Shown: positions 7,281 to 32,557 of the stretch, in pieces
How the letters are laid out: each line of letters begins with the position of its first letter
How positions within the stretch are numbered: position 1 is the first letter of the stretch
Assembly: GCA_030149525.1 (NCBI GenBank)
Contig: JASBRJ010000256.1
Coordinates: 1 to 39,227, forward strand
DNA from: a bacterium
Lineage (GTDB): Bacteria > Vulcanimicrobiota > Xenobia > Xenobiales > JADMJV01
DNA: 39,227 bases
Direction: 5' to 3'
Translations under genes and position numbers: made by a program
Notes under the pieces: generated by a model
Databases searched by the model: none
The model's input: only the letters and a program-made list of their open reading frames with translations
What the model was told of the DNA's origin: nothing

Positions 7281-7976
7281 TACTCGTTCTCTCCTTGAAT
7301 TCGAGGGGTCAAGAGAAACTCTCGTCGAGCCACAATCCGGCCTTGAGGCGAGTCGGTGGTAAAGGTGAGAACAAAATTCCATTGCCTCTCTTCACTTGTC
7401 GGGGTCACTTCAAAGGTCTCGAGGTGGCCGGCCCAACGCTCTTCGACAATCCCTGAGGAGCAGGCGGCTATAAGCTCCGTCTGAGTGAACGCGAAAGGGT
7501 CGGTTGTGGGCAGAGGGGGCTTCTTCCATCTCAACCGAACCAATCGCCTTTTGGCCGAGTCGAGCTTCAGTATGGTGACGGTTCGCCAGAACGTCCGTCC
7601 GGAAACCGGATCGAAACTGGCAACAGAGTCGCTTCCTTCATGAGTTAAGAAGCTGACCGCCGAAAGAGTGGGCTGATTGACGCTGGTGACTGAATCCGGA
7701 GTGGAAGGGAGAAAGGCCGTTCTAATCCTGGCTTCGGCCAGAAGGGCCGCTTGCTCGATCTCAGCCCTGGCCCGAGTCTGCTTCCAGATTTGGAACCCGG
7801 GGAGTAGCACCTGGGCGATAATAGATAACAGAACTCCTATGAGCCCAAGAGCGATCAGACTCTCAAGGAGAGATAGTCCGGCGGTGCTATTCTGAGTTCT
7901 AGAGAAAATTTTGCACCATCCGAACCAACGGCAAGAGACAGGCCAGGGCGACCAGGCCCACCAGGAGACCGACAAC
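7280..7976 (-). CDS. Prepilin-type pseudopilin (GspJ-like size), start codon uncertain
   Basis: Class III signal ...NSTAG|LSLLESLIALGLIGVLLSIIA with Glu+5. There is no ATG/GTG/TTG within 25 codons upstream of the Gly. The candidate TTG starts at 7976 or 8035 overlap the 3' end of the GAF-GspF gene. The upstream extension is Trp-rich, which is an antisense artefact. Confidence 0.55.
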
Positions 7977-9659: not shown

Positions 9660-10742
9660 TCAGATAGGAGTTTGCGATTCGAATCGCGTGGAGGGCAGGG
9701 GGCGGGGCAAAAAGTCAGGCGTCACAGGCCTCTCCTCCATGGGGATGTGGAACACGGGAGTGGCCCCACCTGAGAGCGGCGGAACGATCCAGGACCAGTT
9801 AGCATTGACTCTGCGGGAAGCTTTCTCTTCCAGCTCCATGTATTTCAAGAATTGTCTTGAAGCGGTGTGATGATCCACGATGGTCACTCCGGCGCGTTGG
9901 AAAGAGTGAAGCACAGCCCTGTTGAGTTCTACCAGAGTCTGATCTCGCCACAGAGTTCTTTCGTCGCTGATGTCATACCCGAATCGCCAGGCCAACTTGG
10001 GCAGCAGATTATAGCGATGAGGGTCGGCCAGATTTCTGGCCCCGATCTCCGTCCCCATGTACCACCCACTGAAGCAACAGGGAAAATGCAATCCGCCCAC
10101 CTCCAGCAAGTTGTTACTAATCACCGGAAGAGCGTGCCAACGGAGTCCGAGCCCCTTGAACCAGGCTTTCTCAGGATGCTCCAACTCCACCTCGAGGACC
10201 GCCTCCGATGGAAGTTCAAAAAGCTCCACTCGAGGGCCGTTTTGGATGGCCAGCGGAAGAACCTGAAACGGCTTACCCGTCGGCTCCCATCCCAAAGCTC
10301 GGAGCCGTGCCACAAACTCGGCCTGCTCAGGGTCGTCGGCATATCGGATAAGTTGGGAATTCAAAACGGTGGGAGTGTCGGGCCCGAAGACGGTGAGAAT
10401 CGGCTTTATGAGCCCGCCGTTCGTCGATTCCACCAGATGCTCGACACAGCTTTCGAATGTCTCCCTTGAACTTCGAAGGTGCCGAAAATCTCTGACCTCC
10501 AGTTGACGCCACACCAGACGGCCGATACAGCGAGCGTTGTTCCGCCAGGCTAGCTTCCCCCCAAAATCGAGTTCACTGGGACTAAGAGTATAGGTTCCTG
10601 TGGCCAGGAATTCTGCTTCTATAGCTTTCCATCGCTCAGATTTCTCCGCTGGAGAGAGAAGCTGTTCCTCGACCAATTCCTGGAGAAAGGCATGCACCGA
10701 CTCCCGGAGAGCCGGTGGAACGTTCTTTTGAAGACGAGGCAT
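9660..10742 (-). CDS. nos: Bacterial nitric-oxide synthase, oxygenase domain only (bNOS)
   Basis: Signature motifs AWRNNARCIGRLVW (heme-thiolate Cys), FSGWYMGTEIGARN and NWSWIVPP. The 360-aa length with no reductase or Zn-hook N-terminus matches bacterial NOS (e.g. Bacillus, Deinococcus). Confidence 0.9.
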   Translation of the reverse strand: MPRLQKNVPPALRESVHAFLQELVEEQLLSPAEKSERWKAIEAEFLATGTYTLSPSELDFGGKLAWRNNARCIGRLVWRQLEVRDFRHLRSSRETFESCVEHLVESTNGGLIKPILTVFGPDTPTVLNSQLIRYADDPEQAEFVARLRALGWEPTGKPFQVLPLAIQNGPRVELFELPSEAVLEVELEHPEKAWFKGLGLRWHALPVISNNLLEVGGLHFPCCFSGWYMGTEIGARNLADPHRYNLLPKLAWRFGYDISDERTLWRDQTLVELNRAVLHSFQRAGVTIVDHHTASRQFLKYMELEEKASRRVNANWSWIVPPLSGGATPVFHIPMEERPVTPDFLPRPLPSTRFESQTPI

Positions 10743-16113: not shown

Positions 16114-16743
16114 ATGAACATCAACATCAATTTTGGATATCAAACTCGTGGATGCTGGGGAGGCGGCTGGAGACCTTCACCTGTGTATCGCCCGGTCAAC
16201 TCAAACCACGGTAACCTCGACGGCGCTGTTGTCGGCAACCGACACTGGTTTTGGGGCGGTGGCGCACCGGTGCGGGGCTATGGCGTCGATCTGAACAACA
16301 ACGGACGCTACGACCGCGGACAAGACGGAGTCCTCGCCTTCGACTTCAACCGCGACGGCAAACTCGGCCGCAAAGAGATCACCCAGTCGCGCGAAATGTT
16401 GAGAGCTTTCGGTGGATGCGACGATATCAACGGCGACGGCAAAGTCAGCTTTTCCGAAAGAAACAAAGCCCGCAGATACCGAGCCCGAATGCAACGAATG
16501 GACCTCAATCGCGACGGCAAACTCAGCACCTACGAACTCGCGCGAGGCGGTGCCCTGGTCGGTGTGGACCATAACCGCAACGGTAAGTTTGGCCGCCATG
16601 AAACTTACAGCCCCTACAACATTCCTACTCCTGGTTTCGGACGTGGACGCCTCGACTTCGTGGACCCTTCGCGAGGATACAGCCAGGTTAATCACGGATG
16701 GGCCTGGAGTTTTCCTCCTCACTATGGCTGCTGCTGCCGATAG
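16114..16743 (+). CDS. EF-hand calcium-binding protein (4-5 canonical 12-residue loops), Gly/Trp-rich N-terminus, C-terminal CCC
   Basis: Loops DFNRDGKLGRKE, DINGDGKVSFSE, DLNRDGKLSTYE, DHNRNGKFGRHE (DxNxDG…E) plus a degenerate DLNNNGRYDRGQ. SD-like GAAGGG 9 nt upstream of the ATG. Confidence 0.75.
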   Translation: MNININFGYQTRGCWGGGWRPSPVYRPVNSNHGNLDGAVVGNRHWFWGGGAPVRGYGVDLNNNGRYDRGQDGVLAFDFNRDGKLGRKEITQSREMLRAFGGCDDINGDGKVSFSERNKARRYRARMQRMDLNRDGKLSTYELARGGALVGVDHNRNGKFGRHETYSPYNIPTPGFGRGRLDFVDPSRGYSQVNHGWAWSFPPHYGCCCR

Positions 16744-18246: not shown

Positions 18247-21200
18247 TTGCGGCCCTATAGAGACATATTTCTCCTTGGCGTCTTCTTTCTGGCACTGGAT
18301 TTTGGGCTTAGATACCCTATCATCTTCGACCCCGCAGTAGGCTTGCTCACTGTAGCGATTCTCGTCTGGGGGAGGAAAACCGCACCACTCTTTGTGGTCC
18401 TCGCTCTTGCCGTCAATCTCTACACTGGCCAGAGTTGGCTCCCCGCTTTACTTCTCGCGTGCGCCGACGTTGCACTATCGGGAGGGGTCGCCTGGCTGGT
18501 CACAAGACTCCTGAGCCAGGAAGGCCGGTTGAGCACAATCCGGGACCTGGTACTCTTCATGAGCGTGGTATGTCCCGTTGTAGGTGTGATTGGCGCTCTG
18601 GCCCGTTATCAAATTCTTCTTCTCAGCGGTTCTCCCATGATACCCACGGGCTTCCTCTATCTGGTTGTGGAAACGCTCGCCCTCTTATTCGGCTTAGCGC
18701 TTGGCGTACCGCTGGGACTGGCTCTTTTCGACGTCAAGCCGCCCTGGCAGAACCGGCTACAATTGGTAGGACTGCCGACGCTCTTTCTCATCCTTTTTAC
18801 CTTTTTCGGACGGGAGGTCATTCAAAGCAACTATGAGCGAAGCGCCGGTATGCTCGTTCAAACTCAAGCTCGTCTGATGGCGGACCGCACCCAGGAAGAG
18901 CTTCTCTTCTACGAGCGCTTGCTTCGCACCATCGCAGCCTACTTGAGGTCGCACCCCAACACTACTCAGGATGAGTTCGAGAAATTTGCAGCAAGCCTCA
19001 CAGAGCGCGGCAGCATGCTGATAGCCCTGCAATGGATTCCGCGAAGCCAAACCGAGTCCGATTCTCTCTTCCTCTACCAGGCTATTCCCGGCTCGGGGGC
19101 ACCTGGAGAGTCTCTTCAAAGAGAAGGTGGATGGCAGAAAGAGGTCACAGCCAAAGACGCTATCACCGTCAAATTTCCCGCGCGGGAAAGCGACGATGCG
19201 GTGAGGGGTCGCTTCTACATGATTCTGCCTCTGGATTTTCCCAACGCCGGTTACGTCATAGGTGAGTTCTCAACCAGGGCGCTGGTCGAGACCAGTAGGA
19301 AGGAAGTGAAAGACTCCCGCCTCATGGCTGCCGAGGTTTATGGCGCCGAAGGTGTCCAACCTGAGAATCTGCTGTTCCGCTTCGGGAAGCCCTGGAAGCC
19401 GAACCTTCAGACCTTCTCCGAGACCATCGCCGTAGGTGACTCCCGCTGGACTTTACGGATACCCGTTGTCATCGATCCCGACTCCCGGCCAAAGTTCGCT
19501 TTACCCATGGGGCTCTTCATACTGACTGCTGTACAATTCTTTTTGGTCCTTGTGAGTGACGGCCAGAACCGGATCAAACAGCTCAATACCGAAGTTCAAG
19601 AAAGAGCGCTCCGACTGGAACGATTAAACGAAGAACTGGCGGAGGCACGGGATTCAGCTCAGTCTGCCAACGAGGCAAAAAGTCTTTTTCTGGCCAATAT
19701 GAGCCATGAGATCCGGACTCCCATGAACGGGATTCTCGGCCTCATCCGACTCTTGCTTGAAAGCGAGCTTCGCCCGGCTCAGGAAGAACAACTCCATCAT
19801 GTTCTCTCTTCTGCCGACTCCTTGATGGCCGTCCTGGACGAAATCCTGGACTTTTCGAAAGCCAAAGGCGGAGCCCTCAAAGCCGAACCTGCCGACCATA
19901 ACCTGGCATCGTTGCTGGAGCGTGCCGTAAGAACGATGATTCTTGCCGCAGAAGAAAAGGGTCTCACTCTGCTGCTTTCTGCCCCCGTAGAACTCCCCGA
20001 GAACGTCACTCTAGACGGAGACAAACTGTATCAGGTTCTCCTCAATTTACTTGGAAACGCCATCAAATTCACCGACACGGGCGAAGTGGAGTTGAAAGTT
20101 GAAGTTGAGCCCGCCGAAGGGTCAAAATCTCACTTCGTCTTTTCAGTCCGTGACACCGGTCCAGGCATCCCCTCCGACCAACAAGCGAAAATATTCGAAG
20201 CCTTCACTCAGGTCTCCAGTCCCGACCATGCCGACCCTCGAGGCGCAGGTCTGGGACTTGCCATCTCTCAACGATTGGTTGAGTTGATGGGGGGGAAACT
20301 TGCCGTCACAAGCTCGGTGAATCAGGGCGCCACCTTTAGCTTCTCCCTACTCTGTGAGTCCAGCCCGTTGGTAGAATCAAGCATAGAGCGCGAAATCAAC
20401 GCTTCAGATTACCCGACTCACATAGCCTTGAACTCGCAAGCACTCAGCCGAAATCTGGAAGAACTCTTTCGCCACTGGGGCTTTCCCGTCGTTTCCGACA
20501 AGTCGAAAGCAAAACTCCTGGTGGGCGATGATCGGCTGCTCACTCTGAACTCTCCTGAGTCTGTCGGTACCATCATCTGCCTGGACGCCTCCCGATTCGT
20601 TCAGCTGTACGACTCTTGTCTTTCCAAAGGAGCCATCGCCCTGGCTCAGCCGATCAGCACCCGAGTTATCCAGGAAGCCATCGAGACCGCTCTTCTCGGT
20701 CGAGAGACCGCGGTTGAAGAGCAGCAGCCGAAGGCCGCCCCTTGCAGGGACTTTTCAGGACTGACGGCACTCGTTGCCGACGACAACTATACCAATCGAC
20801 TTCTAGCCTCACTTCTACTCAAGCGGCAAGGATTCGAAGTGATTCTAGCCGAGGATGGACAGGAAGCGGTGGAAACCACCAGGCGAATGCAGCCCGACGT
20901 GATCCTCATGGATATTCGCATGCCCAAGCTCAACGGGTACGAAGCGGCTCAAAAGCTGCGGAATCTGAATTACTCCGTTCCCGTGATTGCCGCTACCGCC
21001 CACACACTGGAAGCCTCCGACCCGAAATTGAAAGAAGCGGGTTTGAACGGATTGGTCAAAAAGCCGTTGAACGAGGAGAAACTTCGGTCCGTATTATATC
21101 GTGTGATGCTGCAACAGAAGCCCTACTCACTCTCAGCGCTTATGCACTCGGTAGGCCAGAGTCCGTCTTCTGCAAAGGCTGTCATCGAAGGATTCCTCAA

Positions 21201-21432
21201 GGAGGCCAATGAGTTGAGCAAGGCACTTGCCGACGCTTCCGACGAAGACCAACTCTCGGCCGTCCTTCACGCCATACGCGGAACAGTCAGCATCTTCGAG
21301 GCCGAAGCCCTACTGAACGCCATCGACCGACTTGAAACTGAAGGCTTTGAGAAAAGCACCAAGCATAACGTTCAGGAGAGACTCACGGATTTAACAGAGC
21401 TACTCAAAAAGGAGAGCCTGAGTCTGAGTTAG
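18247..21432 (+). CDS. Hybrid sensor histidine kinase: polytopic N-terminal membrane domain + periplasmic sensor (CHASE-like, inferred) - HisKA - HATPase_c - REC - HPt
   Basis: H-box ANMSHEIRTPMNGILG. N/G boxes LLNLLGNAIKFT, DTGPGIP, GAGLGLAISQRLVELMGG. REC domain with LMDIRMPKLNG. C-terminal HPt LHAIRGTVSIFEAEAL. There are more than six N-terminal TM helices. Confidence 0.9.
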   Translation: MRPYRDIFLLGVFFLALDFGLRYPIIFDPAVGLLTVAILVWGRKTAPLFVVLALAVNLYTGQSWLPALLLACADVALSGGVAWLVTRLLSQEGRLSTIRDLVLFMSVVCPVVGVIGALARYQILLLSGSPMIPTGFLYLVVETLALLFGLALGVPLGLALFDVKPPWQNRLQLVGLPTLFLILFTFFGREVIQSNYERSAGMLVQTQARLMADRTQEELLFYERLLRTIAAYLRSHPNTTQDEFEKFAASLTERGSMLIALQWIPRSQTESDSLFLYQAIPGSGAPGESLQREGGWQKEVTAKDAITVKFPARESDDAVRGRFYMILPLDFPNAGYVIGEFSTRALVETSRKEVKDSRLMAAEVYGAEGVQPENLLFRFGKPWKPNLQTFSETIAVGDSRWTLRIPVVIDPDSRPKFALPMGLFILTAVQFFLVLVSDGQNRIKQLNTEVQERALRLERLNEELAEARDSAQSANEAKSLFLANMSHEIRTPMNGILGLIRLLLESELRPAQEEQLHHVLSSADSLMAVLDEILDFSKAKGGALKAEPADHNLASLLERAVRTMILAAEEKGLTLLLSAPVELPENVTLDGDKLYQVLLNLLGNAIKFTDTGEVELKVEVEPAEGSKSHFVFSVRDTGPGIPSDQQAKIFEAFTQVSSPDHADPRGAGLGLAISQRLVELMGGKLAVTSSVNQGATFSFSLLCESSPLVESSIEREINASDYPTHIALNSQALSRNLEELFRHWGFPVVSDKSKAKLLVGDDRLLTLNSPESVGTIICLDASRFVQLYDSCLSKGAIALAQPISTRVIQEAIETALLGRETAVEEQQPKAAPCRDFSGLTALVADDNYTNRLLASLLLKRQGFEVILAEDGQEAVETTRRMQPDVILMDIRMPKLNGYEAAQKLRNLNYSVPVIAATAHTLEASDPKLKEAGLNGLVKKPLNEEKLRSVLYRVMLQQKPYSLSALMHSVGQSPSSAKAVIEGFLKEANELSKALADASDEDQLSAVLHAIRGTVSIFEAEALLNAIDRLETEGFEKSTKHNVQERLTDLTELLKKESLSLS

Positions 21433-22505
21433 TTCATAAGAGTGGGAAAAGAAATGACGAACTCGCTACCTCCGTCATCTCTGGGGGCAAAGCGAACCGA
21501 ACCGCCGTGGGCCTCCATGACCCGACTTACAATCAGAAGGCCAAGGCCTGTACCTCTCACCGCACCTGACGTTCTGGAGCTTCGATAGAATCTCTCAAAA
21601 ATTCTTGACTGCTCTTTCTCCTCGATTCCCACTCCCCGATCCTTGACACTCAGAACCAAACGTTCACCGCGACAAATCTCCAGGTCAATGGAACAGCCTT
21701 CCGGTGAGTATTTGACGGCGTTGTTCAGAAGGTTCTCGACGGCCCGACTCATCCAATCCCAATCAAAAGAAGCCGGGTACTCCTCCAGTTCACAACGAAG
21801 CCGAAGCTCCTGGCCCTTCTCTTTCGCGACGGGAGTCGCACCGAGAATCACCTCTTCCACCAACTCGCGAAAACAATTGTCTTCCCTATGAAGCGGAAAC
21901 TCTCCATCCTCAATCCGGATGAAGTCGAGATACTTGTCGAGTCTCGCGAACAATTTTTCAAGAGAGCGGGTGGCAAGATCTAGAGCCTCTTGGTTGCCAC
22001 TTCCTCGAAAAGATTGGAGAGCCATACTGGCACAAGCTGCCGGACTCCGAAGATCATGCACCAAAAGGGTGCGAATCTCGTCCTTAAGGAAGCTTAGCTC
22101 CTCCTCCCGCTGGACCGACCGCCGATTGGCTAGAGCCTTCTCTAGAGCGGCCCCAAGAGCAAGGGGTCCCTCCTTAAAATAGGCTTTATCGAGATAACCG
22201 TCCGCACCCTCGGCGATAGCATCTACAGGAGTATGCAACTCCCCCTTACCGGTGATGACCACCACGGCCGTTTTTCGACAACGGTCCCTGATCTCTTTGA
22301 GCAGAGCTATTCCGTCCCCGTCGGGGAGTCGATAGTCCAGAAGAACGAGATCATACTTTTGCTGGCTGAGAGCCTCTCGACCCTCTCCGGCGGTGGATGT
22401 CGTCTGAAGCTCTATGTCGTGATGTTTCAACAGCTCTCCAACTAGAGCTCGTGTTGTGGTGGAATCGTCCACCAGCAAGACCTTACAGCCGTGAATTGTT
22501 TGCAT
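21429..22505 (-). CDS. Response-regulator receiver fused to histidine kinase (REC-HisKA-HATPase_c)
   Basis: REC motifs VLLVDD, LVLLDYRLPDGDG, VVVITGKGE. H-box LVHDLRSPAA. HATPase LLNNAVKYSPEG, DRGVGIE, GTGLGLLIVSRVMEAHGG. The 3' end overlaps the hybrid HK stop by 4 nt (convergent). Confidence 0.85.
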   Translation of the reverse strand: MQTIHGCKVLLVDDSTTTRALVGELLKHHDIELQTTSTAGEGREALSQQKYDLVLLDYRLPDGDGIALLKEIRDRCRKTAVVVITGKGELHTPVDAIAEGADGYLDKAYFKEGPLALGAALEKALANRRSVQREEELSFLKDEIRTLLVHDLRSPAACASMALQSFRGSGNQEALDLATRSLEKLFARLDKYLDFIRIEDGEFPLHREDNCFRELVEEVILGATPVAKEKGQELRLRCELEEYPASFDWDWMSRAVENLLNNAVKYSPEGCSIDLEICRGERLVLSVKDRGVGIEEKEQSRIFERFYRSSRTSGAVRGTGLGLLIVSRVMEAHGGSVRFAPRDDGGSEFVISFPTLMN

Positions 22506-22612: not shown

Positions 22613-23311
22613 ATGACGCAACCCCCAAAGATCCTGATTGTCGACGACGACAAAGACCTGCAAAGGGTGCTCCAGCTGGAACTTGAGACCTTCAGCTACA
22701 ACGTTTGTTTTGCCCAAGACGGCATCGAAGCCCGGGCCAAATCTCGCTCTGAAAATCCCGATCTCATCATTCTCGATGTGAATCTGCCAGGCATGGACGG
22801 TCTTGAAGTGTGTCGAAAGGTTCGCTCCGAGTCCAACGTCCCGATTCTCATGCTCAGTGCCCTCAGAGAAGACTACGACCGTATTGTGGGCTTGGAAGTC
22901 GGTGCCGACGACTATCTGGGGAAACCTTGCAATCCCAGGGAGTTGCTGGCCCGAGTACGTGCTCTACTTCGTCGCTCACGAATGACGAAAAGCAGCGAGC
23001 CGAATTCCGATCACGAACTCAGGATTGGCGAACTCTTTCTGAACACCGAAAGCCACCAGGCATGGCAAAAAGAAGAGCCGCTCTCTCTCACACCTATTGA
23101 ATTTTCTCTCTTGGAACAGTTGATGGCAAATCATCAAAAAGTTTTGTCACGCGAAGAACTCATCGAGTCGATCTGGGGCAGCGACTTCGTCAGCAGCCCG
23201 CGGATTCTAGATACTCACATTCGCAATTTGCGACGCAAACTTGATCCTGCCGGTCCAGCCATAGACGTGGTCAGAGGCATAGGCTTCAAACTTTCTTTAT
23301 TAAATCAGTAA
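22613..23311 (+). CDS. OmpR/PhoB-family response regulator (REC + winged-helix DNA-binding domain)
   Basis: ILIVDDD, LIILDVNLPGMDG and ADDYLGKP receiver motifs. C-terminal LTPIEFSLLEQLMAN…LDTHIRNLRRKL trans_reg_C. Confidence 0.9.
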   Translation: MTQPPKILIVDDDKDLQRVLQLELETFSYNVCFAQDGIEARAKSRSENPDLIILDVNLPGMDGLEVCRKVRSESNVPILMLSALREDYDRIVGLEVGADDYLGKPCNPRELLARVRALLRRSRMTKSSEPNSDHELRIGELFLNTESHQAWQKEEPLSLTPIEFSLLEQLMANHQKVLSREELIESIWGSDFVSSPRILDTHIRNLRRKLDPAGPAIDVVRGIGFKLSLLNQ

Positions 23312-23462
23312 CGCCCGACCACGAAAACCCTAAAAACTCCTAGCAATCTCCCGACAATCTCCTATTTACCATTCCAGGTTGCCCCCATTGGCCCGTGAAA
23401 TTTAGGGGCCAGAATTTTGCCCCGAGAGCTCTTTCTCGAGTTCTTGGCCACGGGAGGCATAC

Positions 23463-23942
23463 ATGTCAAAATATCACATTCGCGAGGAGCTTGTTGCAGC
23501 TCAAGTCGGCGATGAGCTCGTCGTCTATGACTCAAAACTTCAAGCGGCCCACAGCTTATCTGCTGATGCCGCCGAACTCTTTCAGAGACTCAAAGAGGGA
23601 AAAGAACTCGAGCACAGCGAGGCAAATCTCGCGATTCTTTCACTCTTCGCAGAAAAAAATTTCCTCGAGGAGTCCGATGACTGGAGTCGTCGAGACTTTC
23701 TATCCGGTGCCATCAAAGCCGCCACCGTCCCCCTCATCGCAAGCGTTGCCCTCCCCGTTCCGGCGGCAGCCCAGTCCGGCGCCGGCGTGTCGGAGGCTGA
23801 CTGCGAACTCAGCGGAGGGGCATCCTGCGGTCAACCCTGCACCGGCTTCCCTATCGGCACGCGAGTCTGTGGCTCCGTGAGCGGAGTGCCGGGCGGGGCA
23901 TGTGGGTGTGTGCCGACTCCGGCAGCCTGCAGTTGCACCTAA
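23463..23942 (+). CDS. Hypothetical protein: PqqD/RRE-like N-terminal domain (~70 aa) + internal twin-arginine-like signal/TM segment + 8-Cys C-terminal tail
   Basis: Strong SD GGGAGG 5 nt before the ATG. Residues 15-70 (DELVVYDSKLQAAHSLSADAAELFQRLKEGKELEHSEANLAILSLF) follow the PqqD/RRE pattern. SRRDFLSGAIKAATVPLIASVALPVPAAAQS resembles a Tat signal with an AxA site. The tail is CELSGGASCGQPCTGFPIGTRVCGSVSGVPGGACGCVPTPAACSCT. A 6-nt gap separates it from the next gene. Confidence 0.6.
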   Translation: MSKYHIREELVAAQVGDELVVYDSKLQAAHSLSADAAELFQRLKEGKELEHSEANLAILSLFAEKNFLEESDDWSRRDFLSGAIKAATVPLIASVALPVPAAAQSGAGVSEADCELSGGASCGQPCTGFPIGTRVCGSVSGVPGGACGCVPTPAACSCT

Positions 23943-23978
23943 ACTAGATTGCCTACGGACACAATTTGGAGCAGAGAC

Positions 23979-26900
23979 ATGAGATTATCCTGGAAACAAC
24001 CCGCCATAGCTTTGGTGGCTTTAATAAACTTCGGCTGTGGTGCCGTGGAAACCGGATTCACGGCCAACCCCACCTCACCCGGCACACCCATCGCGGCCAA
24101 CACCACGGAAGCCGTAGCAGGCTCACCCGGGGCCGCCGAGTTTCTGGCTCGTAACGCGGCCCAGGGCTTTGCCTCGGTAGAAGACCGCAGTGTGGGCCAG
24201 AACCGCTTTCTGGTCTTCACCAGTCGTGGAGACCTCATCGCCGCCGATACCAACGGACGACGGGATATCTATCTAAGAGATCTTCGTACCGGTGAAATGA
24301 GGTTGGTCAGTGTGGCCACCAACGGCACCCAGGGTAACGGTGACTCCACTCAAGCCTCCATTTCCGCCGACGGGCGTTTCGTGGTCTTCCGCTCGGCCGC
24401 TACCAACCTGGTGACAGGCGACGGTAACGGTGTGACCGATATCTTTCTTCATGAGATCGCCACCGGGACCACCACTCGAGTGAGCACCGCCACCGGTGGA
24501 GCAGAAGTAAGCGGCGCCAGCCTGACGCCTGCCGTCTCGGCCAACGGACGCTACGTGGTGTTTGCTTCTTCTGCAACAAACCTGGTGGCTACCGACAGCA
24601 ACGGCGCTCAAGATATCTTCTTAAAAGACGTCACCACCAACACCACAACCCTGGTGAGCAGCAACTCGGCCCAAACAGATTCGGCCAACGGCAACTCCTA
24701 CGACCCCGCCATCACCGCCGGAACCACCACCGAAGGAGAGTTCATCGCCTTCTCCACCGAGGCCACCGACATCGTGGCAGGCGGTCTTAACGGACAGCGC
24801 CAGGTGGTCCGTATCGAACGAGCCACCCCCGCAAACCGGGTTCTGGTGAGTCAGAGCGCCGGGGCCGTGCAAGCCGACGGTCCGTGCTACGAACCCAGCC
24901 TCTCTAACGACGGTAACACCGTGGCCTTCTTCACCCTGGCCACCAACCTCGGCGCGGTGGCCGACGGCAACGGCTTCTTCGATGTTTACACCAGAAATAT
25001 TTCCGGAAATACCACCACCAACCAGAGTGTGAACACCGGTGGCAACCCCTCCGACGGTCACAGCGGCTATCCCAGTCTCTCCGCCAACGGTTCGGTTGTG
25101 GCTTTTGGAAGTCTCGCCACAGACCTTGTAGCAGGTGACTCCAACGGACGATTCGACGTTTTTCGACGAGAGAGCGGGTCCACGAGCCTGGCCAGCCAGG
25201 CCACCGACAGCACCGCCGGAAACTCCGATTCCGATCTTCCCGGCATATCGCTTGACGGTCGCTATGTGGCGTTCCGCTCGGCGGCCTCCACGCTTTCCAG
25301 TAACGATAGCACTACTGATGATGACATTTTTCTGAGAGATTCCCTCACCCCGGCAACGGTGCTGCAGAGCATCGCATGTCGCATTCTAGCGACTTTTGCC
25401 GGGGTTTCCGGTTCCTCGTTCACCACCGGGCTGAATCCTATTGACACAGCAGTCGCTGACTTCGATGGCGACGGCAACCTAGATGTGGCAACAGCAGATA
25501 GAGGCGACAACACCGTCTCTGTCCTGCTCGGCAACGGGAGCGGAGGCCTAGGGACCGCCTCAAGTTTCGCTGTTGGGACGACCCCTGTTCCTATTCTGGC
25601 TCGAGACTTTAACGGCGACGATAACGTCGATCTTGCCGTAGCGAACTATGCCAGCGGGAACGTCTCCATCCTCATAGGAGACGGGACCGGGGGATTCGCA
25701 GCCGCCGCCAACTTTATGGTAGGAGCCGCAGGGGGCGCAAATCCCCTCGCTATGGTTACCGCCGACTTCAATGGCGACAACAACCTGGATCTGGCTGTTG
25801 CTAACGACAGCACGGACGATACGACGATTCTTTTAGGTAACGGAGCCGGCGGTTTTACGCTCGCGGCGAACCTCGACCATGGGTTCGTCGCTGTAAGAGA
25901 TATCGCCCAGGGCGACTTCAACGGCGATACCTTTCCCGACCTGGCGGTCTTGAAATCAGACAGTGAATTTCGTCTCTTTTTCGGAGATGGTACGGGAGCT
26001 TTCGGACCGTCAACCTCAATTTCAACAGAGAGCAGTCCCGCGGCCATCACGACCACTGATTTCAACGGCGACGGGAACCTGGATATCGCGACACTCCACA
26101 CGTTTAATGACGTTCAAGTCTTCTTGGGAGATGGCACAGGGGGCTTTTCAGCCCCGACCGGCTTCCCTCCAGCTGTCGGTGGCTCCAGCGGGGGTGCACA
26201 GAGAGCGAAAATCCTTCCCGTGGATCTGGACGGAGACGGGAATCTGGATCTCATCTCGACCGGGGGATCGCGAGGTCTCTCTTTTCTACCAGGAAACGGG
26301 GACGGTACATTCGGAGCCGCGACAGAAATCGACGAGCCAGGGCGTTCCCTGAGTGTCGGAGACTTTGACAATGATGGATACCTCGATCTTGTAGCGACGG
26401 ATTCATCTCCTCCCAACGACGATCAAGTTCTCATCCTCCTCAACCAACGCCCCGACTGGCCCGGTCTCGGTTCCAAGACAGATTACTCTACTAGTTCCCG
26501 TCCCGAAAATCTCGCCATGGGAGACTTGGACGGCGACGGAGACCTCGACTTCGTGGTCAAGAGCAGCGATAGTGACAATCTGTCCATCAGACTCAACAAC
26601 GGCTCGGGAGTCTTCTCCGGTTCGGACATCGCTCCGGTCTCCGGCTTGAATTCAGCGGTGGTAAGACTGGCCGACTTCAACAACGATGGATATCTCGACA
26701 TCTTGCTCCTGGCCAGTGGAGACTACGCGCTCCTCACCAATGACGGTCAGGGAGGGTTCAGCGTCAACGCCGTCTCGTTCTTATCCGGCGGTGGACCCAA
26801 AGTGGCTGTAGCCGATATGAACGGGGACGGATTCTTAGATTTCGTGGTGGGAGCGTCAAGCTCTACGGTGACTCGAACCTTCTTTAACGACACAGCCGGC

Positions 26901-27494
26901 GGCTTCACCCCGGTGAGCCTGTCGGCCAACGCTACAAGCGACATACTCCTGGGAGATATCGACGGAGACGGAGATGCCGATATTGTGCGAACTCGCGCCG
27001 ATCTTGGTTCGCCTCGAAGTTTCCAGGTTCGCTTTAACGACGGCTCCGGAAACTTCGGCGCAGAAAGCGCTCGGGGAAACCAGTACAACAGAGGACGAGG
27101 CGCCCTCGCCGATGTGGACGGCGACGGAGACCTGGATTTCGTCAACAGTCTCCGCACTTCAAACAACGTCGCCGTGTCTCTCAACGACGGGACCGGCACC
27201 TTTAGTGCGGACGTCCTGTATCCCGTGGGTTCGCTTCCTCAAAAACCAGCCCTCGCCGACGTCGATGGAGACGGAGACCTGGATATCGTCGTGGCCAACG
27301 ACAGCGACAATACACTTTCTGTCTTGCTCGGAAATGGAAGAGGAGCCTTCGCCCCAGCACGGACTTTCACCGTGGGAGACACGCCGAATGACCTGGACCT
27401 GGGCGATCTAGACGGCGACGGAGACCCGGACATCGCTTGCCCCAACAATCTGGATTCCAACGTCTCTGTCTTTTTGAATCAAGCTTGCCCTTAA
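23979..27494 (+). CDS. Large surface lipoprotein: lipobox signal, PD40/TolB-like beta-propeller N-half, FG-GAP/VCBS repeat C-half (paralog 1)
   Basis: MRLSWKQPAIALVALINFGC lipoprotein signal (ATG 23979 with GGAG SD; the track ORF starts at TTG 23949). Repeats of the type NG.RDIYLRDL.TGE and SADGRFVVF. About 12 FG-GAP-like units with DxDGDGxLD motifs. Ends …LNQACP. Confidence 0.8.
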   Translation: MRLSWKQPAIALVALINFGCGAVETGFTANPTSPGTPIAANTTEAVAGSPGAAEFLARNAAQGFASVEDRSVGQNRFLVFTSRGDLIAADTNGRRDIYLRDLRTGEMRLVSVATNGTQGNGDSTQASISADGRFVVFRSAATNLVTGDGNGVTDIFLHEIATGTTTRVSTATGGAEVSGASLTPAVSANGRYVVFASSATNLVATDSNGAQDIFLKDVTTNTTTLVSSNSAQTDSANGNSYDPAITAGTTTEGEFIAFSTEATDIVAGGLNGQRQVVRIERATPANRVLVSQSAGAVQADGPCYEPSLSNDGNTVAFFTLATNLGAVADGNGFFDVYTRNISGNTTTNQSVNTGGNPSDGHSGYPSLSANGSVVAFGSLATDLVAGDSNGRFDVFRRESGSTSLASQATDSTAGNSDSDLPGISLDGRYVAFRSAASTLSSNDSTTDDDIFLRDSLTPATVLQSIACRILATFAGVSGSSFTTGLNPIDTAVADFDGDGNLDVATADRGDNTVSVLLGNGSGGLGTASSFAVGTTPVPILARDFNGDDNVDLAVANYASGNVSILIGDGTGGFAAAANFMVGAAGGANPLAMVTADFNGDNNLDLAVANDSTDDTTILLGNGAGGFTLAANLDHGFVAVRDIAQGDFNGDTFPDLAVLKSDSEFRLFFGDGTGAFGPSTSISTESSPAAITTTDFNGDGNLDIATLHTFNDVQVFLGDGTGGFSAPTGFPPAVGGSSGGAQRAKILPVDLDGDGNLDLISTGGSRGLSFLPGNGDGTFGAATEIDEPGRSLSVGDFDNDGYLDLVATDSSPPNDDQVLILLNQRPDWPGLGSKTDYSTSSRPENLAMGDLDGDGDLDFVVKSSDSDNLSIRLNNGSGVFSGSDIAPVSGLNSAVVRLADFNNDGYLDILLLASGDYALLTNDGQGGFSVNAVSFLSGGGPKVAVADMNGDGFLDFVVGASSSTVTRTFFNDTAGGFTPVSLSANATSDILLGDIDGDGDADIVRTRADLGSPRSFQVRFNDGSGNFGAESARGNQYNRGRGALADVDGDGDLDFVNSLRTSNNVAVSLNDGTGTFSADVLYPVGSLPQKPALADVDGDGDLDIVVANDSDNTLSVLLGNGRGAFAPARTFTVGDTPNDLDLGDLDGDGDPDIACPNNLDSNVSVFLNQACP
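24040..25305. repeat. Direct repeat copy A (~1.27 kb, ~93-95% nt identity to 27568-28833); 5' halves of tandem paralogous lipoprotein genes
   Basis: Long identical runs, e.g. gccaacaccacggaagccgtagcaggctc and ctggctcgtaacgcggcccagggctttgcctcggtagaagacc, occur in both copies. The proteins are about 95% identical over ~440 aa without indels. Confidence 0.8.
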
Positions 27495-27506: not shown

Positions 27507-30500
27507 GTGAAACTATCTTGGAAGATACCCGCTGCCACTCTTGTGGCACTCCTCAACTTCGGCTGCGGCGGAGTGGAAACCGGCCTCTCAGCCGGTCCCA
27601 CCTCACCCGGCGCCCCCATCGCGGCCAACACCACGGAAGCCGTAGCAGGCTCGCCCAGAGCCGCCGAGTTTCTGGCTCGTAACGCGGCCCAGGGCTTTGC
27701 CTCGGTAGAAGACCGGAGCGTGGGGCAGAACCGCTTCCTGGTCTTCACCAGTCGTGGAGATCTCATCCCCGCTGATACCAATGGAGTGCGCGATGTCTAT
27801 CTGAGAGATCTTCGTACAGGTGAGATGCGTCTGATAAGTGTGGCCACCAACGGCACTCAAGGAAACGGTGACTCCACTCAAGGCTCCATCTCCGCCGACG
27901 GGCGCTTCGTGGTCTTCCGCTCGGCCGCCACCAACCTGGTGACAGGCGACGGTAACGGTGTGACCGATATCTTTCTTCATGAGGTCGCCACAGGCACCAC
28001 CACTCGGGTGAGCACCGCCACCGGTGGAACAGAAGTGAGTGGCGCCAGCCTGACCCCTGCCATCTCGGCCAACGGACGCTACGTGGTCTTTGCTTCTTCT
28101 GCTACAAACCTGGTGGCCACCGACAGCAACGGCGCTCAAGATATCTTCTTAAAAGACGTCACCACCAACACCACAACTCTGGTGACCAGCAACTCGGCCC
28201 AGACCGATTCGGCCAACGGTGCATCTTTTGACCCCGCCATCACCGCAGGAACCACCACCGAAGGAGAGTTCATCGCCTTCTCCACCGAGGCCACCGACAT
28301 TGTGGCAGGCGGTCTTAACGGACAGCGCCAGGTGGTGCGCATCGAACGAGCCACTCCGGGGACCAGAGTTTTGGTCAGCCAGAGCGCCGGGGCCGTGCAA
28401 GCCGACGGTCCGTGCTACGAACCCAGTCTCTCCAACGACGGTAACACCGTAGCTTTCTTCACTCTCGCCACCAATCTCGGTGCGGTGGCCGACGGCAACG
28501 GCTTCTTCGATGTCTACACCAGAAATATTTCCGGTAATACCACCACCAACCAGAGCGTGAACACCGGGGGCAACCCCTCCGACGGCCACAGCGGCTATCC
28601 CAGTCTCTCCGCCGACGGTTCAGTTGTGGCTTTCGGAAGTCTCGCCACCGACCTTTTGGCAGGTGACTCCAACGGACGATTCGACGTCTTCCGACGAGAG
28701 AGCGGGTCCACGAGCCTGGCCAGCCAGGCCACCGACACCACCGCCGGAAACTCCGATTCCGATCTTCCCGGTATCTCACTTGATGGTCGCTATGTGGCGT
28801 TCCGCTCGGCGGCCTCCACCCTTTCCAGCCACGACAGCACCACCGACGACGACATCTTCGTGAGAGACAGCAGCCTCGCCACCACCTTCTGGAGCACTGT
28901 GAGTTGCCTCTTCCCGGGTGTTTGGCCCGGTACGAACGGCTTGCCCGCCAGTCGGACCATTGTAGGGATTGATGGCCCTTATGATGTGGACGCAGCCGAC
29001 GTGGACGGTGACGGTGATATCGATCTGATTGGCGGCAGTCGAAACGGTGATTCGGTCTCTGTCCTCCTCAACTCAGACGGCCTTGGCACCTACACACTTG
29101 CCGCTACTCTTGCGGTGGGCGACGCTCCCGTAGGTGTTCTCTGGGCCGATTTGAACGGAGACGGCAATCTGGACATCGCCACAGCCAACGTCACCAGTAC
29201 CAACGTATCCATTCTGCTCGCCACCGACGGCACCGGCACCAACTATTCCGCAGCCACGAATTTCACCACCACCGACAGTCCGTACAACATTTACGCGGGG
29301 GACCTCGACGGAGATGGAGACCTCGATCTTGTCACCGCCAACTTCAGCAGTTCCTCGATCTCCGTTCTGCTCAACAACGGCACGGGAGGCTTTTCCGCTC
29401 CTACCGTCCTGTCTGGTGGGTTAGACTTCAACGAACACCTGGCCTTGGGAGACCTGGATGGAGACAGCGACCTGGACATCGTCACGGCCAACAGTCTTGA
29501 CACCACCATCTCGATTTTCCCAAACTCCGGCTCCGGAACCTTCGGCGGGCGTACCGATATTGTGGTAGGGGGTGGACCCATTGGAATCGATGTGGCTGAT
29601 TTGGACGGAGATATGGACCTGGATATTGTGACCAGCAATAGAGATGACGGCAACGTCTCTGTCCTCATCAACAACGGCAGTGGAAGCTTTACCGCACCGG
29701 TCAACTATCCAGTGGGTAGCAGTCCCAACGCTTTGCGTCTCTCCGATGCCAACGGCGATGATGTCCCGGACCTCTTCGTTATCAACAGGACTGAGGACAG
29801 CGTGGGCGTGCTTCTCAATTCTGGAACGGGAACCTTCGGCGCTATGACGACCACCACGGTGGGAGACGCCTCCAGCAACCTCGTGGTGGCGGATGTGGAC
29901 GGCGAAATGGATAGGGACATTGTCGTACCGAGTATCAACGACGACAAGATCTCCATCCGTCTCAATCAAAACGGCCTGGGTAGCTACGAAACACCTGTTT
30001 CCATCGCTACGCTGAATGAACCACTTTCGGTTTCCCTGGGAGACTTTGACGGCGATGGAGACATCGATTGCGCCGTTGCTGAAGACACCTCCAACGTCAG
30101 GGTGCTCTTGAACACAGACGGAGCAGGCACACTTGGGAGCCCTTCCAATTTCGCCGCAAACGGTAGTCCTAGAGGCCTGGCCCAGGGCGATATCGACGGA
30201 GACGGCGATCTCGATTTGGTGGCTTCTAATACAACCGGCAGTATGCTCTCGGTCTTTACGAATTCCGGACTCGGTGTGTTCAGCGGCCCCACCAGCTTCG
30301 CGGTGAATATACGAAGCCAGCATGTGGCCCTGGGGGACCTCGACGGAGACGGTGATCTCGATCTGGTGACGGCGGCCGGTACTAGCGACGGACTTTCCGT
30401 CCTGTTCAACTCCGACGGTATGGGCACATTCTCCGGATTGACGACCTACAACCAGCCCGGTCGATCCTTCTGGGTAAGCCTGGGCGATGTGGACGGTGAC

Positions 30501-31019
30501 GGGGATCTTGATATGGTCGTCGTCAACTCCGATATCGACATGATAACGGTCTATCTCAACTCTGACGGAATGGGAACCTTTGTCAATGATTCTACTTACT
30601 CTGTAGGGAACCAACCTGAAAGTTTGGCTTTTGGTGACATCGACAACGATGGGGACCTCGATATAGTGGTCTCCGACCGGTTCGACAATACCGTGTCCCT
30701 ACTCAGGAACTCCGGCACAGGCTCCTTTGCGGCCGCCGTGACCACACCAACCGGCCACCGACCTCAAACCGTTCACCTGGGTGACTACGACGGCGACGGA
30801 GACCTCGACATCGCCACGGTCGATGGGGGAAATAGCCTGAGCGTTCTGCTGAACTCCGATGGCTCGGGAGGCAGCTTCTCCTCATCCCTCATTCCCGTCG
30901 GCGCGGGTTCTCTCTACCTGGATGCCGCCGATCTCAACAGCGACGGAGACCTCGACTTTGTGGTCAGTAGCTTTAGCAGCAACGGTCTCAGCGTTCTGCT
31001 CAACCAGGCATGTCCGTAA
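27507..31019 (+). CDS. Large surface lipoprotein, paralog 2 (PD40-like N-half nearly identical to paralog 1; divergent FG-GAP/VCBS C-half)
   Basis: GTG start with AAGGAG SD. MKLSWKIPAATLVALLNFGC lipobox. More than 12 FG-GAP-like units (DLDGDGDLD…). Ends …LNQACP. Confidence 0.8.
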   Translation: MKLSWKIPAATLVALLNFGCGGVETGLSAGPTSPGAPIAANTTEAVAGSPRAAEFLARNAAQGFASVEDRSVGQNRFLVFTSRGDLIPADTNGVRDVYLRDLRTGEMRLISVATNGTQGNGDSTQGSISADGRFVVFRSAATNLVTGDGNGVTDIFLHEVATGTTTRVSTATGGTEVSGASLTPAISANGRYVVFASSATNLVATDSNGAQDIFLKDVTTNTTTLVTSNSAQTDSANGASFDPAITAGTTTEGEFIAFSTEATDIVAGGLNGQRQVVRIERATPGTRVLVSQSAGAVQADGPCYEPSLSNDGNTVAFFTLATNLGAVADGNGFFDVYTRNISGNTTTNQSVNTGGNPSDGHSGYPSLSADGSVVAFGSLATDLLAGDSNGRFDVFRRESGSTSLASQATDTTAGNSDSDLPGISLDGRYVAFRSAASTLSSHDSTTDDDIFVRDSSLATTFWSTVSCLFPGVWPGTNGLPASRTIVGIDGPYDVDAADVDGDGDIDLIGGSRNGDSVSVLLNSDGLGTYTLAATLAVGDAPVGVLWADLNGDGNLDIATANVTSTNVSILLATDGTGTNYSAATNFTTTDSPYNIYAGDLDGDGDLDLVTANFSSSSISVLLNNGTGGFSAPTVLSGGLDFNEHLALGDLDGDSDLDIVTANSLDTTISIFPNSGSGTFGGRTDIVVGGGPIGIDVADLDGDMDLDIVTSNRDDGNVSVLINNGSGSFTAPVNYPVGSSPNALRLSDANGDDVPDLFVINRTEDSVGVLLNSGTGTFGAMTTTTVGDASSNLVVADVDGEMDRDIVVPSINDDKISIRLNQNGLGSYETPVSIATLNEPLSVSLGDFDGDGDIDCAVAEDTSNVRVLLNTDGAGTLGSPSNFAANGSPRGLAQGDIDGDGDLDLVASNTTGSMLSVFTNSGLGVFSGPTSFAVNIRSQHVALGDLDGDGDLDLVTAAGTSDGLSVLFNSDGMGTFSGLTTYNQPGRSFWVSLGDVDGDGDLDMVVVNSDIDMITVYLNSDGMGTFVNDSTYSVGNQPESLAFGDIDNDGDLDIVVSDRFDNTVSLLRNSGTGSFAAAVTTPTGHRPQTVHLGDYDGDGDLDIATVDGGNSLSVLLNSDGSGGSFSSSLIPVGAGSLYLDAADLNSDGDLDFVVSSFSSNGLSVLLNQACP
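27568..28833. repeat. Direct repeat copy B (pair of 24040-25305)
   Basis: See copy A. The offset of 3528 nt is constant across the repeat. Confidence 0.8.
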
Positions 31020-31045
31020 GCAAATCCCTCAAGGAAAGAAAAATC

Positions 31046-32557
31046 ATGAAAATCACCTGGAAACACTCCATCATAAGCCTCCTCTCACTCATAACCTTCG
31101 GTTGCGGAGGTGGTGGCGGCACAGATATCGTGGCCGGCCCTGTGACCGGCAAGCCTACGGGGCAGCCCAGCACCCCGGCGCCCAATCCCATCCCCAACCC
31201 GGGGACCCCGCCGGTTCTCAGCCCCGACGGTGTTGTCTTCTTTCAGAGCAACGCCTCCGCCGGTGGCGACGGGTCGGCCACCTCCCCCTTTAACGATTTC
31301 GCAACCGCTCTCGCCTCCACACCCGCCGGAGAGACGCTCTTTCTCTACGCCGGAAGCGGCCCGATTCCGTTCAGCGGTACCATCCCTGGAAATATTCGCA
31401 TTCTGGGTGAGGGACTGGGATTCACCACAACAGGTTTCTCGGTCACAGCCGGAGCGTTCCCTCGCCTTCAAGGTCAGATCACCCTGGCCGACGGCGCGGT
31501 GGTTCAGGGGGTCCAGTTCGAGAACCCCACAGGTCACGGTGCCACTGCCGCCAACGTCACCAGTTTGACTCTCGACTCCAACCGCTTCACCAACATCTCA
31601 GGCGATGCACTTCATATCGAGCGGGCCAACGGAACTCTGAGGCTCACCAACAACGCCATCGTCGACGACTCCCTCGATCCCACCGACGGAGTCGACGTCA
31701 CCGTGGCAGGCTCGGACAACCTGAACCTCACTTTCAACTCCAACACCTTCAGCACGCCGTCGCGAGCCAACTCCTTCGACAACGGCCTGAAGCTGACCGC
31801 CCAGGGCAGCTCCCAACTCACCCTCAACGCCCAAAGCAACACCTTCGACGTGCAGGGGCGCGGCGTTCAAATTCAGGTCTCGGAGACCTCCGTCTTCAAC
31901 GGCACTCTCACCCAAAACACCTTCACCCAGACGCCTCTGGAAGGCATTTCCCTAACCACGGGCCTTGCTACCACCGACACCGCCCAGGCCACCATAGTGG
32001 TCGACAATAACACTTTCAATCAACCCCTCGGTCCGGGAGTGTCTCTTTTGGCCGGAGGAGCCACCACCAACAATTGGACGGTACAAAACAACACCGTGAA
32101 CGCCGGTGGAAACTTCGGCCTCCTGCTAGTGCGCGGCGACAGCGCCTTCGCTCGCAGCAGCGTGAGCAACAATCAGATCTCCAACGCCCAACAGGTGGGA
32201 TTTCAGTACACCAGCGGCACCGCTTCCGGCGGATTCACCGTGCCTCTAGCCGGCGAAGACCGGATCACCGTGAGCGGCAATCAGGTCACAGGTTCCGGCG
32301 TCTCCAGCATGAATTTGAATCTGGTGAGCCAAACTCACGCCGCCCTTCTCACCGGTAATACCACGGGAGGGCCGGTGGTGATGTTGGCCCGGGCGACCAA
32401 CGCTTGCGCCGGTGCCGGAAGCAACAACGTGGGCGGTGCCTTCGCCATCAATGTAGAGAACGGATTCTCCCTCATCTTCGACAACCGTGGCCAAACTACA
32501 CCGGCCGTCTCCTTTCCCGGGGCCGGTACCGTGACACCGGGGGCCTGCATCCCTTGA
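31046..32557 (+). CDS. Lipoprotein with right-handed parallel beta-helix repeats (pectin-lyase-fold-like), ~503 aa
   Basis: MKITWKHSIISLLSLITFGCGGGGG signal related to the two upstream lipoproteins (ATG 31046 with AAGGA SD; the track ORF starts at 31010 inside the preceding gene). Many Asn/Thr-rich ~22-aa turns (NNxI, TLDSNRFTN, TLNAQSNTF). Ends …GACIP. Confidence 0.7.
   Translation: MKITWKHSIISLLSLITFGCGGGGGTDIVAGPVTGKPTGQPSTPAPNPIPNPGTPPVLSPDGVVFFQSNASAGGDGSATSPFNDFATALASTPAGETLFLYAGSGPIPFSGTIPGNIRILGEGLGFTTTGFSVTAGAFPRLQGQITLADGAVVQGVQFENPTGHGATAANVTSLTLDSNRFTNISGDALHIERANGTLRLTNNAIVDDSLDPTDGVDVTVAGSDNLNLTFNSNTFSTPSRANSFDNGLKLTAQGSSQLTLNAQSNTFDVQGRGVQIQVSETSVFNGTLTQNTFTQTPLEGISLTTGLATTDTAQATIVVDNNTFNQPLGPGVSLLAGGATTNNWTVQNNTVNAGGNFGLLLVRGDSAFARSSVSNNQISNAQQVGFQYTSGTASGGFTVPLAGEDRITVSGNQVTGSGVSSMNLNLVSQTHAALLTGNTTGGPVVMLARATNACAGAGSNNVGGAFAINVENGFSLIFDNRGQTTPAVSFPGAGTVTPGACIP

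Follow-up and report, generated by a model that had tools for sequence, protein, structure and literature searches.

Recognition elements (RREs) of peptides made by ribosomes and modified after translation (RiPPs) offer the principal way to find RiPP pathways independently of their class. In the discrete B1 proteins of lasso peptide clusters (TbiB1, TfuB1) and in PqqD, the domain binds a separate precursor. Signals for twin-arginine translocation (Tat) are regarded as N-terminal and as poorly conserved in sequence, and some of them are masked in trans by proofreading chaperones, the redox enzyme maturation proteins (REMPs) TorD, DmsD and NapD. Here we analyse a 159-aa gene on contig JASBRJ010000256.1 (39,227 nt, the window hereafter), from an uncultured marine lineage, in which an RRE/PqqD-like domain, an internal twin-arginine-type signal and a tail with eight Cys are joined in a single protein.

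Two further systems bear on this gene. In kinase-type lasso clusters (PadeK, ThcoK, PsmK, PsmN) an RRE, an HPr-kinase-like protein and a nucleotidyltransferase-like protein form a trio; the kinase phosphorylates the C-terminal Ser of the precursor and PsmN decorates the phosphoserine (PMC9266682). A related set is the HPr-rel-A system of NCBIfam (TIGR04352, TIGR04353 PqqD_rel_X, TIGR04355). The components of the window protein are all of known kinds, and their combination seems undescribed in the literature searched. Neither the fusion of an RRE to a Tat-type signal nor its linkage to a kinase and a nucleotidyltransferase is described in the surveys PMC7470986 and PMC12710340 or elsewhere in that literature. 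The initial annotation, made from the sequence alone, had likewise recognised no described family with this arrangement. The arrangement is no one-off: it recurs in a large family distributed over many phyla.

Of the readings offered by the initial annotation, a self-chaperoned, Tat-exported, disulfide-rich peptide appears best supported by the sequence comparisons. We lean towards the view that the gene encodes the precursor of such a peptide, with a composite RRE and Tat-type leader, a signal docked in cis and a 56-aa product with four disulfides. The RRE domain (residues 1-70) would bind the P-[LV]-[IV]-x-[ST]-[IV]-x-x-P stretch of its own signal in cis as an extra beta-strand, in the manner in which RREs bind RiPP leader peptides, and would so mask or gate the signal. 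After release the signal would insert with its N-terminus in, most likely via Tat, carrying the C-terminal tail across the membrane. Signal peptidase would cut after A-A-A103 and free the 56-aa peptide, whose eight Cys would form four disulfides outside the cytoplasm, the RRE and the signal remnant staying behind. In the wider family the products of a neighbouring HprK-related kinase gene and an NTP_transf_5 gene would presumably modify or license the RRE-bound precursor, for which the 87%-conserved Ser two residues after the AxA motif (S105) is a candidate site. In the eight-Cys subfamily, to which the window gene belongs, this enzyme layer would have decayed and the gene would now be a fixed component of a surface-lipoprotein operon, the mature peptide probably acting at the cell surface together with a beta-helix and two FG-GAP lipoproteins.

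The gene and its family

The open reading frame (ORF) at 23463-23942 on the forward strand, with its stop codon at 23940-23942, is a genuine gene. As the initial annotation had stated, it is preceded by a Shine-Dalgarno sequence, read directly from the DNA as GGGAGG at 23452-23457 (+), 5 nt before the ATG. The three parts named there are all present and are kept in homologues at 92-34% identity: the N-domain finds matches among RRE structures, the Cys keep their positions, and none of the homologues begins at the RR motif. Compared with an 87%-identical Tara Oceans homologue, the ratio of nonsynonymous to synonymous substitution rates (dN/dS) is 0.20 for the whole gene; the N-domain, with 0.19, is under purifying selection, and the values for signal and tail are 0.36 and 0.08, respectively. 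An artefact or a fused gene call was ruled out by the conservation and by these ratios, and inspection of the window gene found no in-frame internal start near the RR motif. An alternative-frame ORF of 161 aa (23395-23880, +) overlaps most of the gene and is without support as a gene.

A phmmer search of 1.84 billion representatives (E<=1e-3) returned 101 relatives of the window protein; one repetitive match of 1989 aa was spurious and was excluded. Every other relative examined has a PqqD-like N-domain with a G-D-E-L-x-V-Y-D...A-H-x-L core, an RR signal and a tail. The leader follows one plan, [ST]-R-R-x-[FLV]-L-[KR], a hydrophobic stretch and P-x-P-A-x-A-x-S, after which the tail is hypervariable and 1-344 aa long. 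With this one shared leader, the family amounts to more than 200 relatives (protein clusters) in at least eight phyla. When GTDB species genomes were searched with a degenerate DNA pattern for the RRE core, 46 loci were obtained, belonging to Solirubrobacterales, Thermoleophilia, Conexibacter sp. S30A1, Acidobacteriota, Gemmatimonadota, Planctomycetota, Armatimonadota, Methylomirabilota, Eremiobacterota and others. An alignment-derived pattern search of genome contigs gave 107 pattern matches and no relative; the alignment-derived search of metagenome contigs found nothing, and a degenerate pattern for the tail gave four chance matches, in low-complexity or unrelated DNA. In the databases the members are labelled only 'PqqD family protein' or 'hypothetical'. 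It has been reported that 21% of PF05402 proteins are over-length without other annotation (PMC12710340), and the present family explains part of that fraction.

Tails other than that of the window protein include Gly/Thr/Pro repeats, Ig-like domains, a (CSCP)n run and a complete MsrA (PF01625, 3.5e-59). Because the tails are so diverse, and include an enzyme, the leader behaves as a portable export module. The fusion to MsrA (peptide methionine sulfoxide reductase) lies at 2494-3510 (-) of locus L022, from a betaproteobacterial metagenome-assembled genome, and the metallothionein-like (CSCP)n tail at 1496-1960 (-) of L062; simple-repeat tails, (GPT)n collagen-like and a poly-Ser run, are encoded at L044 and L057 and at L046. 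Paralogous copies occur in tandem or in pairs at L041 (868-2138), L026 and L057 and in a member of the Vicinamibacteria (ABI672_02185 and ABI672_02190; P0187, P0077). Some copies appear to be frameshifted (L041, L050, L056).

The RRE-like domain and the internal signal

Residues 1-70 of the window protein (23463-23672, +) make up the RRE/PqqD-like domain. Strands at residues 11-15, 18-23 and 28-32 are followed by helices at 34-44 and 53-64, which gives a winged-helix fold with a three-stranded sheet; the confidence score (pLDDT) of the AlphaFold2 model, computed from the family alignment, is about 90 over these residues. At the level of the family, profile matches make the RRE/PqqD-like identity of the domain solid: Pfam PqqD (PF05402) is matched by 43 of 105 members at E<0.01 (best 2.6e-10) and TIGR04353, the member of the HPr-rel-A system that the RRE of the wider family resembles most, by 52 of the 105 (best 4.9e-7), and the family profile matches the lasso RREs TbiB1 (E 8.7e-7) and TfuB1. 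The window protein itself falls below every curated Pfam and NCBIfam cut-off for PqqD/RRE, with no Pfam match at E<=10 and a match to TIGR04353 over residues 15-49 at E 0.0025 (18.7 bits against a cut-off of 35). Compared with the family norm its N-domain is short by about 20 aa (its RR motif starts at residue 76, where the family median is 95), and one RRE helix seems to be missing. Unlike the discrete B1 proteins and PqqD, the domain is fused in cis ahead of a signal and a tail, and there are no B2 protease, C cyclase or PQQ genes. No lasso B2 or C gene was seen among the called genes of loci L001-L019 or L071, and no transglutaminase-like or Asn-synthase-like gene in Pfam scans of most of the large ORFs of the window, all flanking genes included.

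The signal occupies residues 75-103 (23685-23771, +), with the twin-arginine motif S-R-R-D-F-L-S, the hydrophobic h-region AIKAATVPLIASVALPVP and A-A-A. Its c-region reads P-V-P-A-A-A103 and is followed by Q-S, so that the window protein possesses Tat motif, h-region and AxA c-region alike; a signal-peptidase site is predicted between A103 and Q104. In 181 family proteins the n-region consensus, [LMIV]-S/T-R-R-x-[LVF]-L-[KR]-[RK], is a textbook Tat motif, and the median distance from RR to AxA is 29 aa. The Tat signal models TIGR01409 and TIGR02811 are matched, weakly by the window protein (E 0.19), and 16 of the 105 members match TIGR01409. In the PDB, the signal segment of the family profile matches the genuine Tat signals of MelC, AioB and NirK. 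The S-R-R-x-F-L motif, the moderately hydrophobic h-region and the AxA are common to Tat signals and to those of the family, but in the Tat substrates described the signal is N-terminal, whereas here it is internal and follows a folded domain of 70-95 aa; the twin arginines of the window protein are residues 76-77. A second difference from Tat substrates is that the sequence of the h- and c-regions is conserved across phyla.

This conservation is centred on the motif P-[LV]-[IV]-x-[ST]-[IV]-x-x-P at residues 90-98 (23730-23756, +), which was recognised from the conservation of alignment columns. In 93 sequences, P90 is kept in 66, [VI]92 in 84, S/T94 in 88 and P98 in 84, and in the c-region A101 is kept in 76, A103 in 88 and S105 in 81 (87%). 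The mean information of the h- and c-regions is 2.3-2.8 bits per column, against 2.3 for the beta-sheet of the RRE. Since a signal so conserved across phyla is constrained in sequence, something should recognise this stretch specifically. AlphaFold2 models residues 92-96 as a beta-strand both in the full-length protein and in the leader alone (pLDDT 56-69), and in the leader-only model the RRE sheet is the sole sheet present with which this strand could pair. From these models we infer that the strand would dock in cis on the RRE sheet, perhaps as an added strand beside beta-3. TorD, DmsD and NapD mask their signals in trans, whereas the chaperone proposed here would be an RRE fold acting in cis. 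An internal, sequence-conserved signal with an RRE in cis is not described for Tat substrates in the literature searched.

An internal hydrophobic segment would also fit the topology of an uncleaved type II (N-in/C-out) membrane protein, inserted as a signal-anchor via the signal recognition particle (SRP) and Sec or via YidC. In such a protein the cytoplasmic winged helix would signal or would bind a partner or DNA, and the Cys tail would serve as a redox or ligand sensor, as in ToxR, CadC or an anti-sigma factor. RREs share their fold with winged helix-turn-helix DNA-binding domains, some members of the family match helix-turn-helix models of MarR, IclR or ArsR weakly, and the window gene follows two-component genes. 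No anti-sigma domain or OmpR-type DNA-binding domain with an adjacent sigma factor was found, and the anti-sigma or ToxR-like reading, which the initial annotation had listed, was rejected as the main explanation. We regard an uncleaved type II protein as unlikely and continue with the precursor of a cleaved and exported peptide.

The eight-cysteine tail

The predicted mature peptide comprises 56 residues (104-159; 23772-23939, +; QSGAGVSEADC...CSCT) and has a net charge of -2. Its Cys are at positions 114, 122, 126, 136, 147, 149, 156 and 158, with the spacing C-x7-C-x3-C-x9-C-x10-C-x-C-x6-C-x-C. In 21 relatives, down to 34% identity, seven of them are invariant and C156 is conserved at about 90%. 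A tail of this type, in which R134 is also nearly invariant, defines a subfamily of about 20 clusters. AlphaFold2 predicts the tail with pLDDT 82-92, with a beta-hairpin (134-138 / 147-151) that carries C136 and C147/C149 and with no helix over C-G-Q-P-C. A Pfam scan of the tail gave nothing meaningful.

A search of the PDB with the tail profile returned 22 matches, all of them cysteine-stabilised alpha/beta (CS-alpha/beta) proteins, that is scorpion toxins and plant defensin-like proteins (best E 0.0028). The six-Cys framework C..CxxxC..GxC/xxC..CxC is present in the window tail and is common to CS-alpha/beta defensins and scorpion toxins, including the GxC before the CxC. A regular expression taken to represent the CS-alpha/beta defensins matches C114...C149 of the window tail and 19 of its eight-Cys relatives; among some 140 further Cys-rich proteins of the family it matches only two, and among shuffled sequences 1.3%. 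Unlike these defensins, the window tail has an extra CxC pair, a negative net charge and no helix in the AlphaFold2 model, and the match is statistically weak. The tail may be said to resemble CS-alpha/beta defensins weakly, and 'defensin-like' is a lead. Bacterial defensins described so far carry N-terminal Sec signals, and the leader of the window protein is entirely different. A survey of bacterial defensins was restricted to proteins of 30-130 aa that have an N-terminal signal peptide and lack transmembrane segments (PMC11561630), and the architecture of the window protein would therefore have been excluded from it.

Among the tails of the family, 135 have an even number of Cys and 11 an odd number, and 35 have none. 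Even counts are expected of fully disulfide-paired extracytoplasmic domains, and it is on these counts, together with a recurrent MauE/MauD-like neighbour, that the prediction of disulfides is based. The maturation of MauA by MauE and MauD likewise concerns a small, exported and very disulfide-rich protein with accessory proteins, as proposed for the family. In contrast to MauA, the window has no MauE or MauD gene and its tail has no similarity to MauA; the link is one of neighbourhood in distant relatives.

The eight Cys, with their two CxC pairs, could instead bind metal in the cytoplasm, as Cu(I), Zn or an Fe-S cluster, the RRE serving as a REMP-type proofreading chaperone until the metal is in place and the peptide then leaving via Tat; the need for Tat would thereby be explained. 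Tat is the route of cofactor-loaded proteins, the masking of a signal in cis would parallel what the proofreading chaperones do in trans, and CxC motifs are metallothionein-like, as is the (CSCP)n tail of L062. Against this, the even Cys counts of the family are in many cases 6, 10 or 14 and not multiples of four, the recurrent neighbour is disulfide machinery of the MauE/MauD type, and the Cys spacing fits a disulfide scaffold, as all of the PDB matches are CS-alpha/beta proteins. Neither His nor Met ligands are present, moreover, and genes for metal handling are absent from the neighbourhood. We consider a metal-binding peptide the least probable of the readings discussed here, and hold to a peptide stabilised by disulfides.

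Gene neighbourhoods

Neighbouring genes were compared by ORF calling filtered on third-position GC content, followed by clustering; high-GC loci yield spurious antisense ORFs. A gene resembling HprK-related kinase A (TIGR04352, E 1e-16 to 1e-18) is present in 32 of the 46 loci, usually directly upstream of the family gene, and an NTP_transf_5 gene (PF14907, up to 6.6e-62) in about 24, as well as in L011 and L019. These neighbours are common to the HPr-rel-A system, of which the wider family is a fused variant: the cut-offs of that system are not reached (59-66 bits against 200, and 18.7-24 against 35), and the PqqD-like protein of the family carries in addition a Tat-type signal and a tail. 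About ten actinobacterial loci have a fusion of MauE (1.5e-29) to a MauD-like thiol-disulfide oxidoreductase (4e-10). Such a gene, MauE fused to a MauD/TlpA-like thioredoxin, lies at 1584-2639 (+) of L040, with homologues at L021, L029, L034, L042, L045, L055, L058 and L061; in Solirubrobacterales and Thermoleophilia it adjoins the cassette of kinase, family gene and nucleotidyltransferase. At L017 (8585-11327) the family gene stands instead between genes for an aryl-sulfotransferase (PF14269, 6.9e-21) and a PCMT-type protein O-methyltransferase, with a T2SSE ATPase gene upstream.

The eight-Cys subfamily has lost the kinase and nucleotidyltransferase layer. No HprK-related kinase A was found in the window by tblastn, nor any kinase or nucleotidyltransferase of this kind in its 39 kb. 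Directly upstream of eight-Cys family genes at L005 (7228-7962), L071 (9263-9958) and L066 (1-285) there is a gene for a homologue of the HprK-related kinase, of about 231-244 aa and without a Pfam or NCBIfam match; the family proteins of L005 and L071 are 48% and 42% identical to that of the window. In L005 and L071 the P-loop of the kinase homologue (GRTLSGKT) is replaced by unrelated residues, and the protein is therefore a pseudokinase. A trace of it was also seen upstream of P0007. A hidden Markov model of the kinase, built from 17 sequences, missed the pseudokinases of L005 and L071, which are detected by pairwise BLAST, so that a negative result with this model is uninformative.

Kinase and nucleotidyltransferase neighbours raise the question of a RiPP-type precursor with a built-in recognition element, in which the RRE would recruit tailoring enzymes in cis and the Cys-rich core would be modified before export by an HprK-like kinase, a nucleotidyltransferase or other enzymes encoded elsewhere. 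The RRE is closest to lasso B1 proteins, and a conserved leader with a hypervariable core is a RiPP signature. Further points in its favour are the two enzymes conserved next to the wider family, whose counterparts modify lasso precursors (PMC9266682), the aryl-sulfotransferase and PCMT genes that flank the family gene at L017, and S105, conserved at 87% and without an evident function in export. However, the 39-kb window holds no kinase, nucleotidyltransferase, radical SAM protein, YcaO, lasso B2 or C protein or other tailoring enzyme, and its sister loci keep only a P-loop-less pseudokinase. Some tails of 200-340 aa, moreover, consist of an entire folded enzyme or domain, and the C-termini of the family, unlike those of kinase-type lasso precursors, have no conserved Ser. 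The novel RiPP-like precursor envisaged in the initial annotation accordingly finds its partners in the wider family and none in the window, and for the window gene we judge it rather improbable, somewhat more so than an uncleaved type II protein.

Several observations also weigh against the Tat-exported, cis-docked precursor that we prefer. With 75 residues between it and the N-terminus, the twin-arginine motif stands at an unusual place for a Tat signal, and no tat genes occur within the 39-kb window. Disulfide-rich proteins are not typical Tat cargo, which leaves room for the SRP/Sec route via a type II signal-anchor. The docking strand is modelled with moderate confidence (pLDDT 56-69), and the window RRE, short by about one helix, may no longer bind peptide. 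The absence of kinase and nucleotidyltransferase means that the ancestral mechanism may not apply in the window, and its net charge of -2 speaks against the mature peptide being an antimicrobial defensin of the classical kind.

A broader proposal is that RRE and Tat-type signal together form an unrecognised, phylum-spanning and self-chaperoned secretion leader, licensed by kinase and nucleotidyltransferase and carrying hypervariable disulfide-rich cargo with a new defensin-like class among it. This we put forward tentatively, as a possibility on the doubtful side. If true, it would link the logic of RiPP recognition to Tat export and add many cystine-stabilised peptides to those of bacteria. 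The fusion of an RRE to a sequence-conserved Tat-type signal suggests in itself either a new export control with a built-in signal-peptide chaperone or a new type of precursor that carries its own recognition element. Two orphan enzyme families, NTP_transf_5 and the proteins resembling HprK-related kinase A, gain a context in which they can be tested, and the family points to a large unexplored pool of exported, cystine-rich bacterial peptides, some of them with a defensin-like Cys framework. For the window, the analysis makes a small, predicted secreted peptide the fixed partner of a conserved beta-helix and FG-GAP surface-lipoprotein operon in an uncultured marine lineage.

Upstream of the family gene, after a gap of 151 nt, lies the gene for an OmpR-type response regulator (22613-23311, +; Pfam Response_reg 2.6e-29, Trans_reg_C 3.1e-23), which bears out the position given in the initial annotation. 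The order of regulator and family gene is the same in L001-L004 and in L016, whose family member is 42% identical. The family gene is followed by a gene for a giant FG-GAP/PD40 probable lipoprotein (23979-27494, +; FG-GAP_3 5.6e-94). The gap of 6 nt noted earlier between the two genes presumes a start at TTG 23949; the likelier start is ATG 23979, which makes the gap 36 nt, because this start has a GGAG Shine-Dalgarno sequence (23968-23971) and yields the 1171-aa product called in homologous contigs. A second, paralogous FG-GAP/PD40 probable lipoprotein (27507-31019, +; FG-GAP_3 2e-97) and a right-handed beta-helix probable lipoprotein with the lipobox-like motif LITFGC (31010-32557, +; Beta_helix 1.7e-15) complete the row, with a 10-nt overlap between these last two genes. 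A similar non-canonical lipobox-like motif, L-I-[NT]-F-G-C, opens both the beta-helix protein and the first of the FG-GAP proteins, and the FG-GAP proteins carry many DxDxDG-type Ca-binding repeats.

Two giant FG-GAP/PD40 proteins are encoded near the eight-Cys gene in the window, L001, L016 and L071, and L001 and L071 have the same pair as the window. In L016 (56% identity) and L071 the gene next after the family gene is a homologue of the first FG-GAP gene, and a homologue of the beta-helix gene lies directly downstream in L005 (47% identity) and two genes upstream in L071 (52% identity). The beta-helix gene is the partner most consistently linked to the eight-Cys subfamily. The 213-aa gene downstream in L005, a contig labelled Xenobiales, was considered as a relative of the 213-aa ORF at 33465 of the window; this was rejected, as it is the beta-helix homologue. 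Among named sequences, the best match to the CarB protein is 60% identical and comes from a metagenome-assembled genome of the Vulcanimicrobiota (Eremiobacterota), so that the lineage is placed tentatively.

Further upstream in the window, a hybrid histidine kinase of 1061 aa (18247-21432, +) and a convergent receiver-HATPase protein (21429-22505, -) share a 4-nt overlap at their 3' ends; together with the OmpR regulator this pair is syntenic with the eight-Cys gene in Tara contigs and in L016. In the Tara contig L002, synteny with the locus extends to a small EF-hand calcium-binding protein (16114-16743, + in the window). The window also encodes a bacterial nitric-oxide synthase oxygenase domain (9660-10742, -; PF02898, E 8.4e-123), a T2SSF platform protein of the type II secretion/type IV pilus kind with an N-terminal GAF fusion (7899-9572, -) and, at its start, a second, plain T2SSF protein (662-1675, +).

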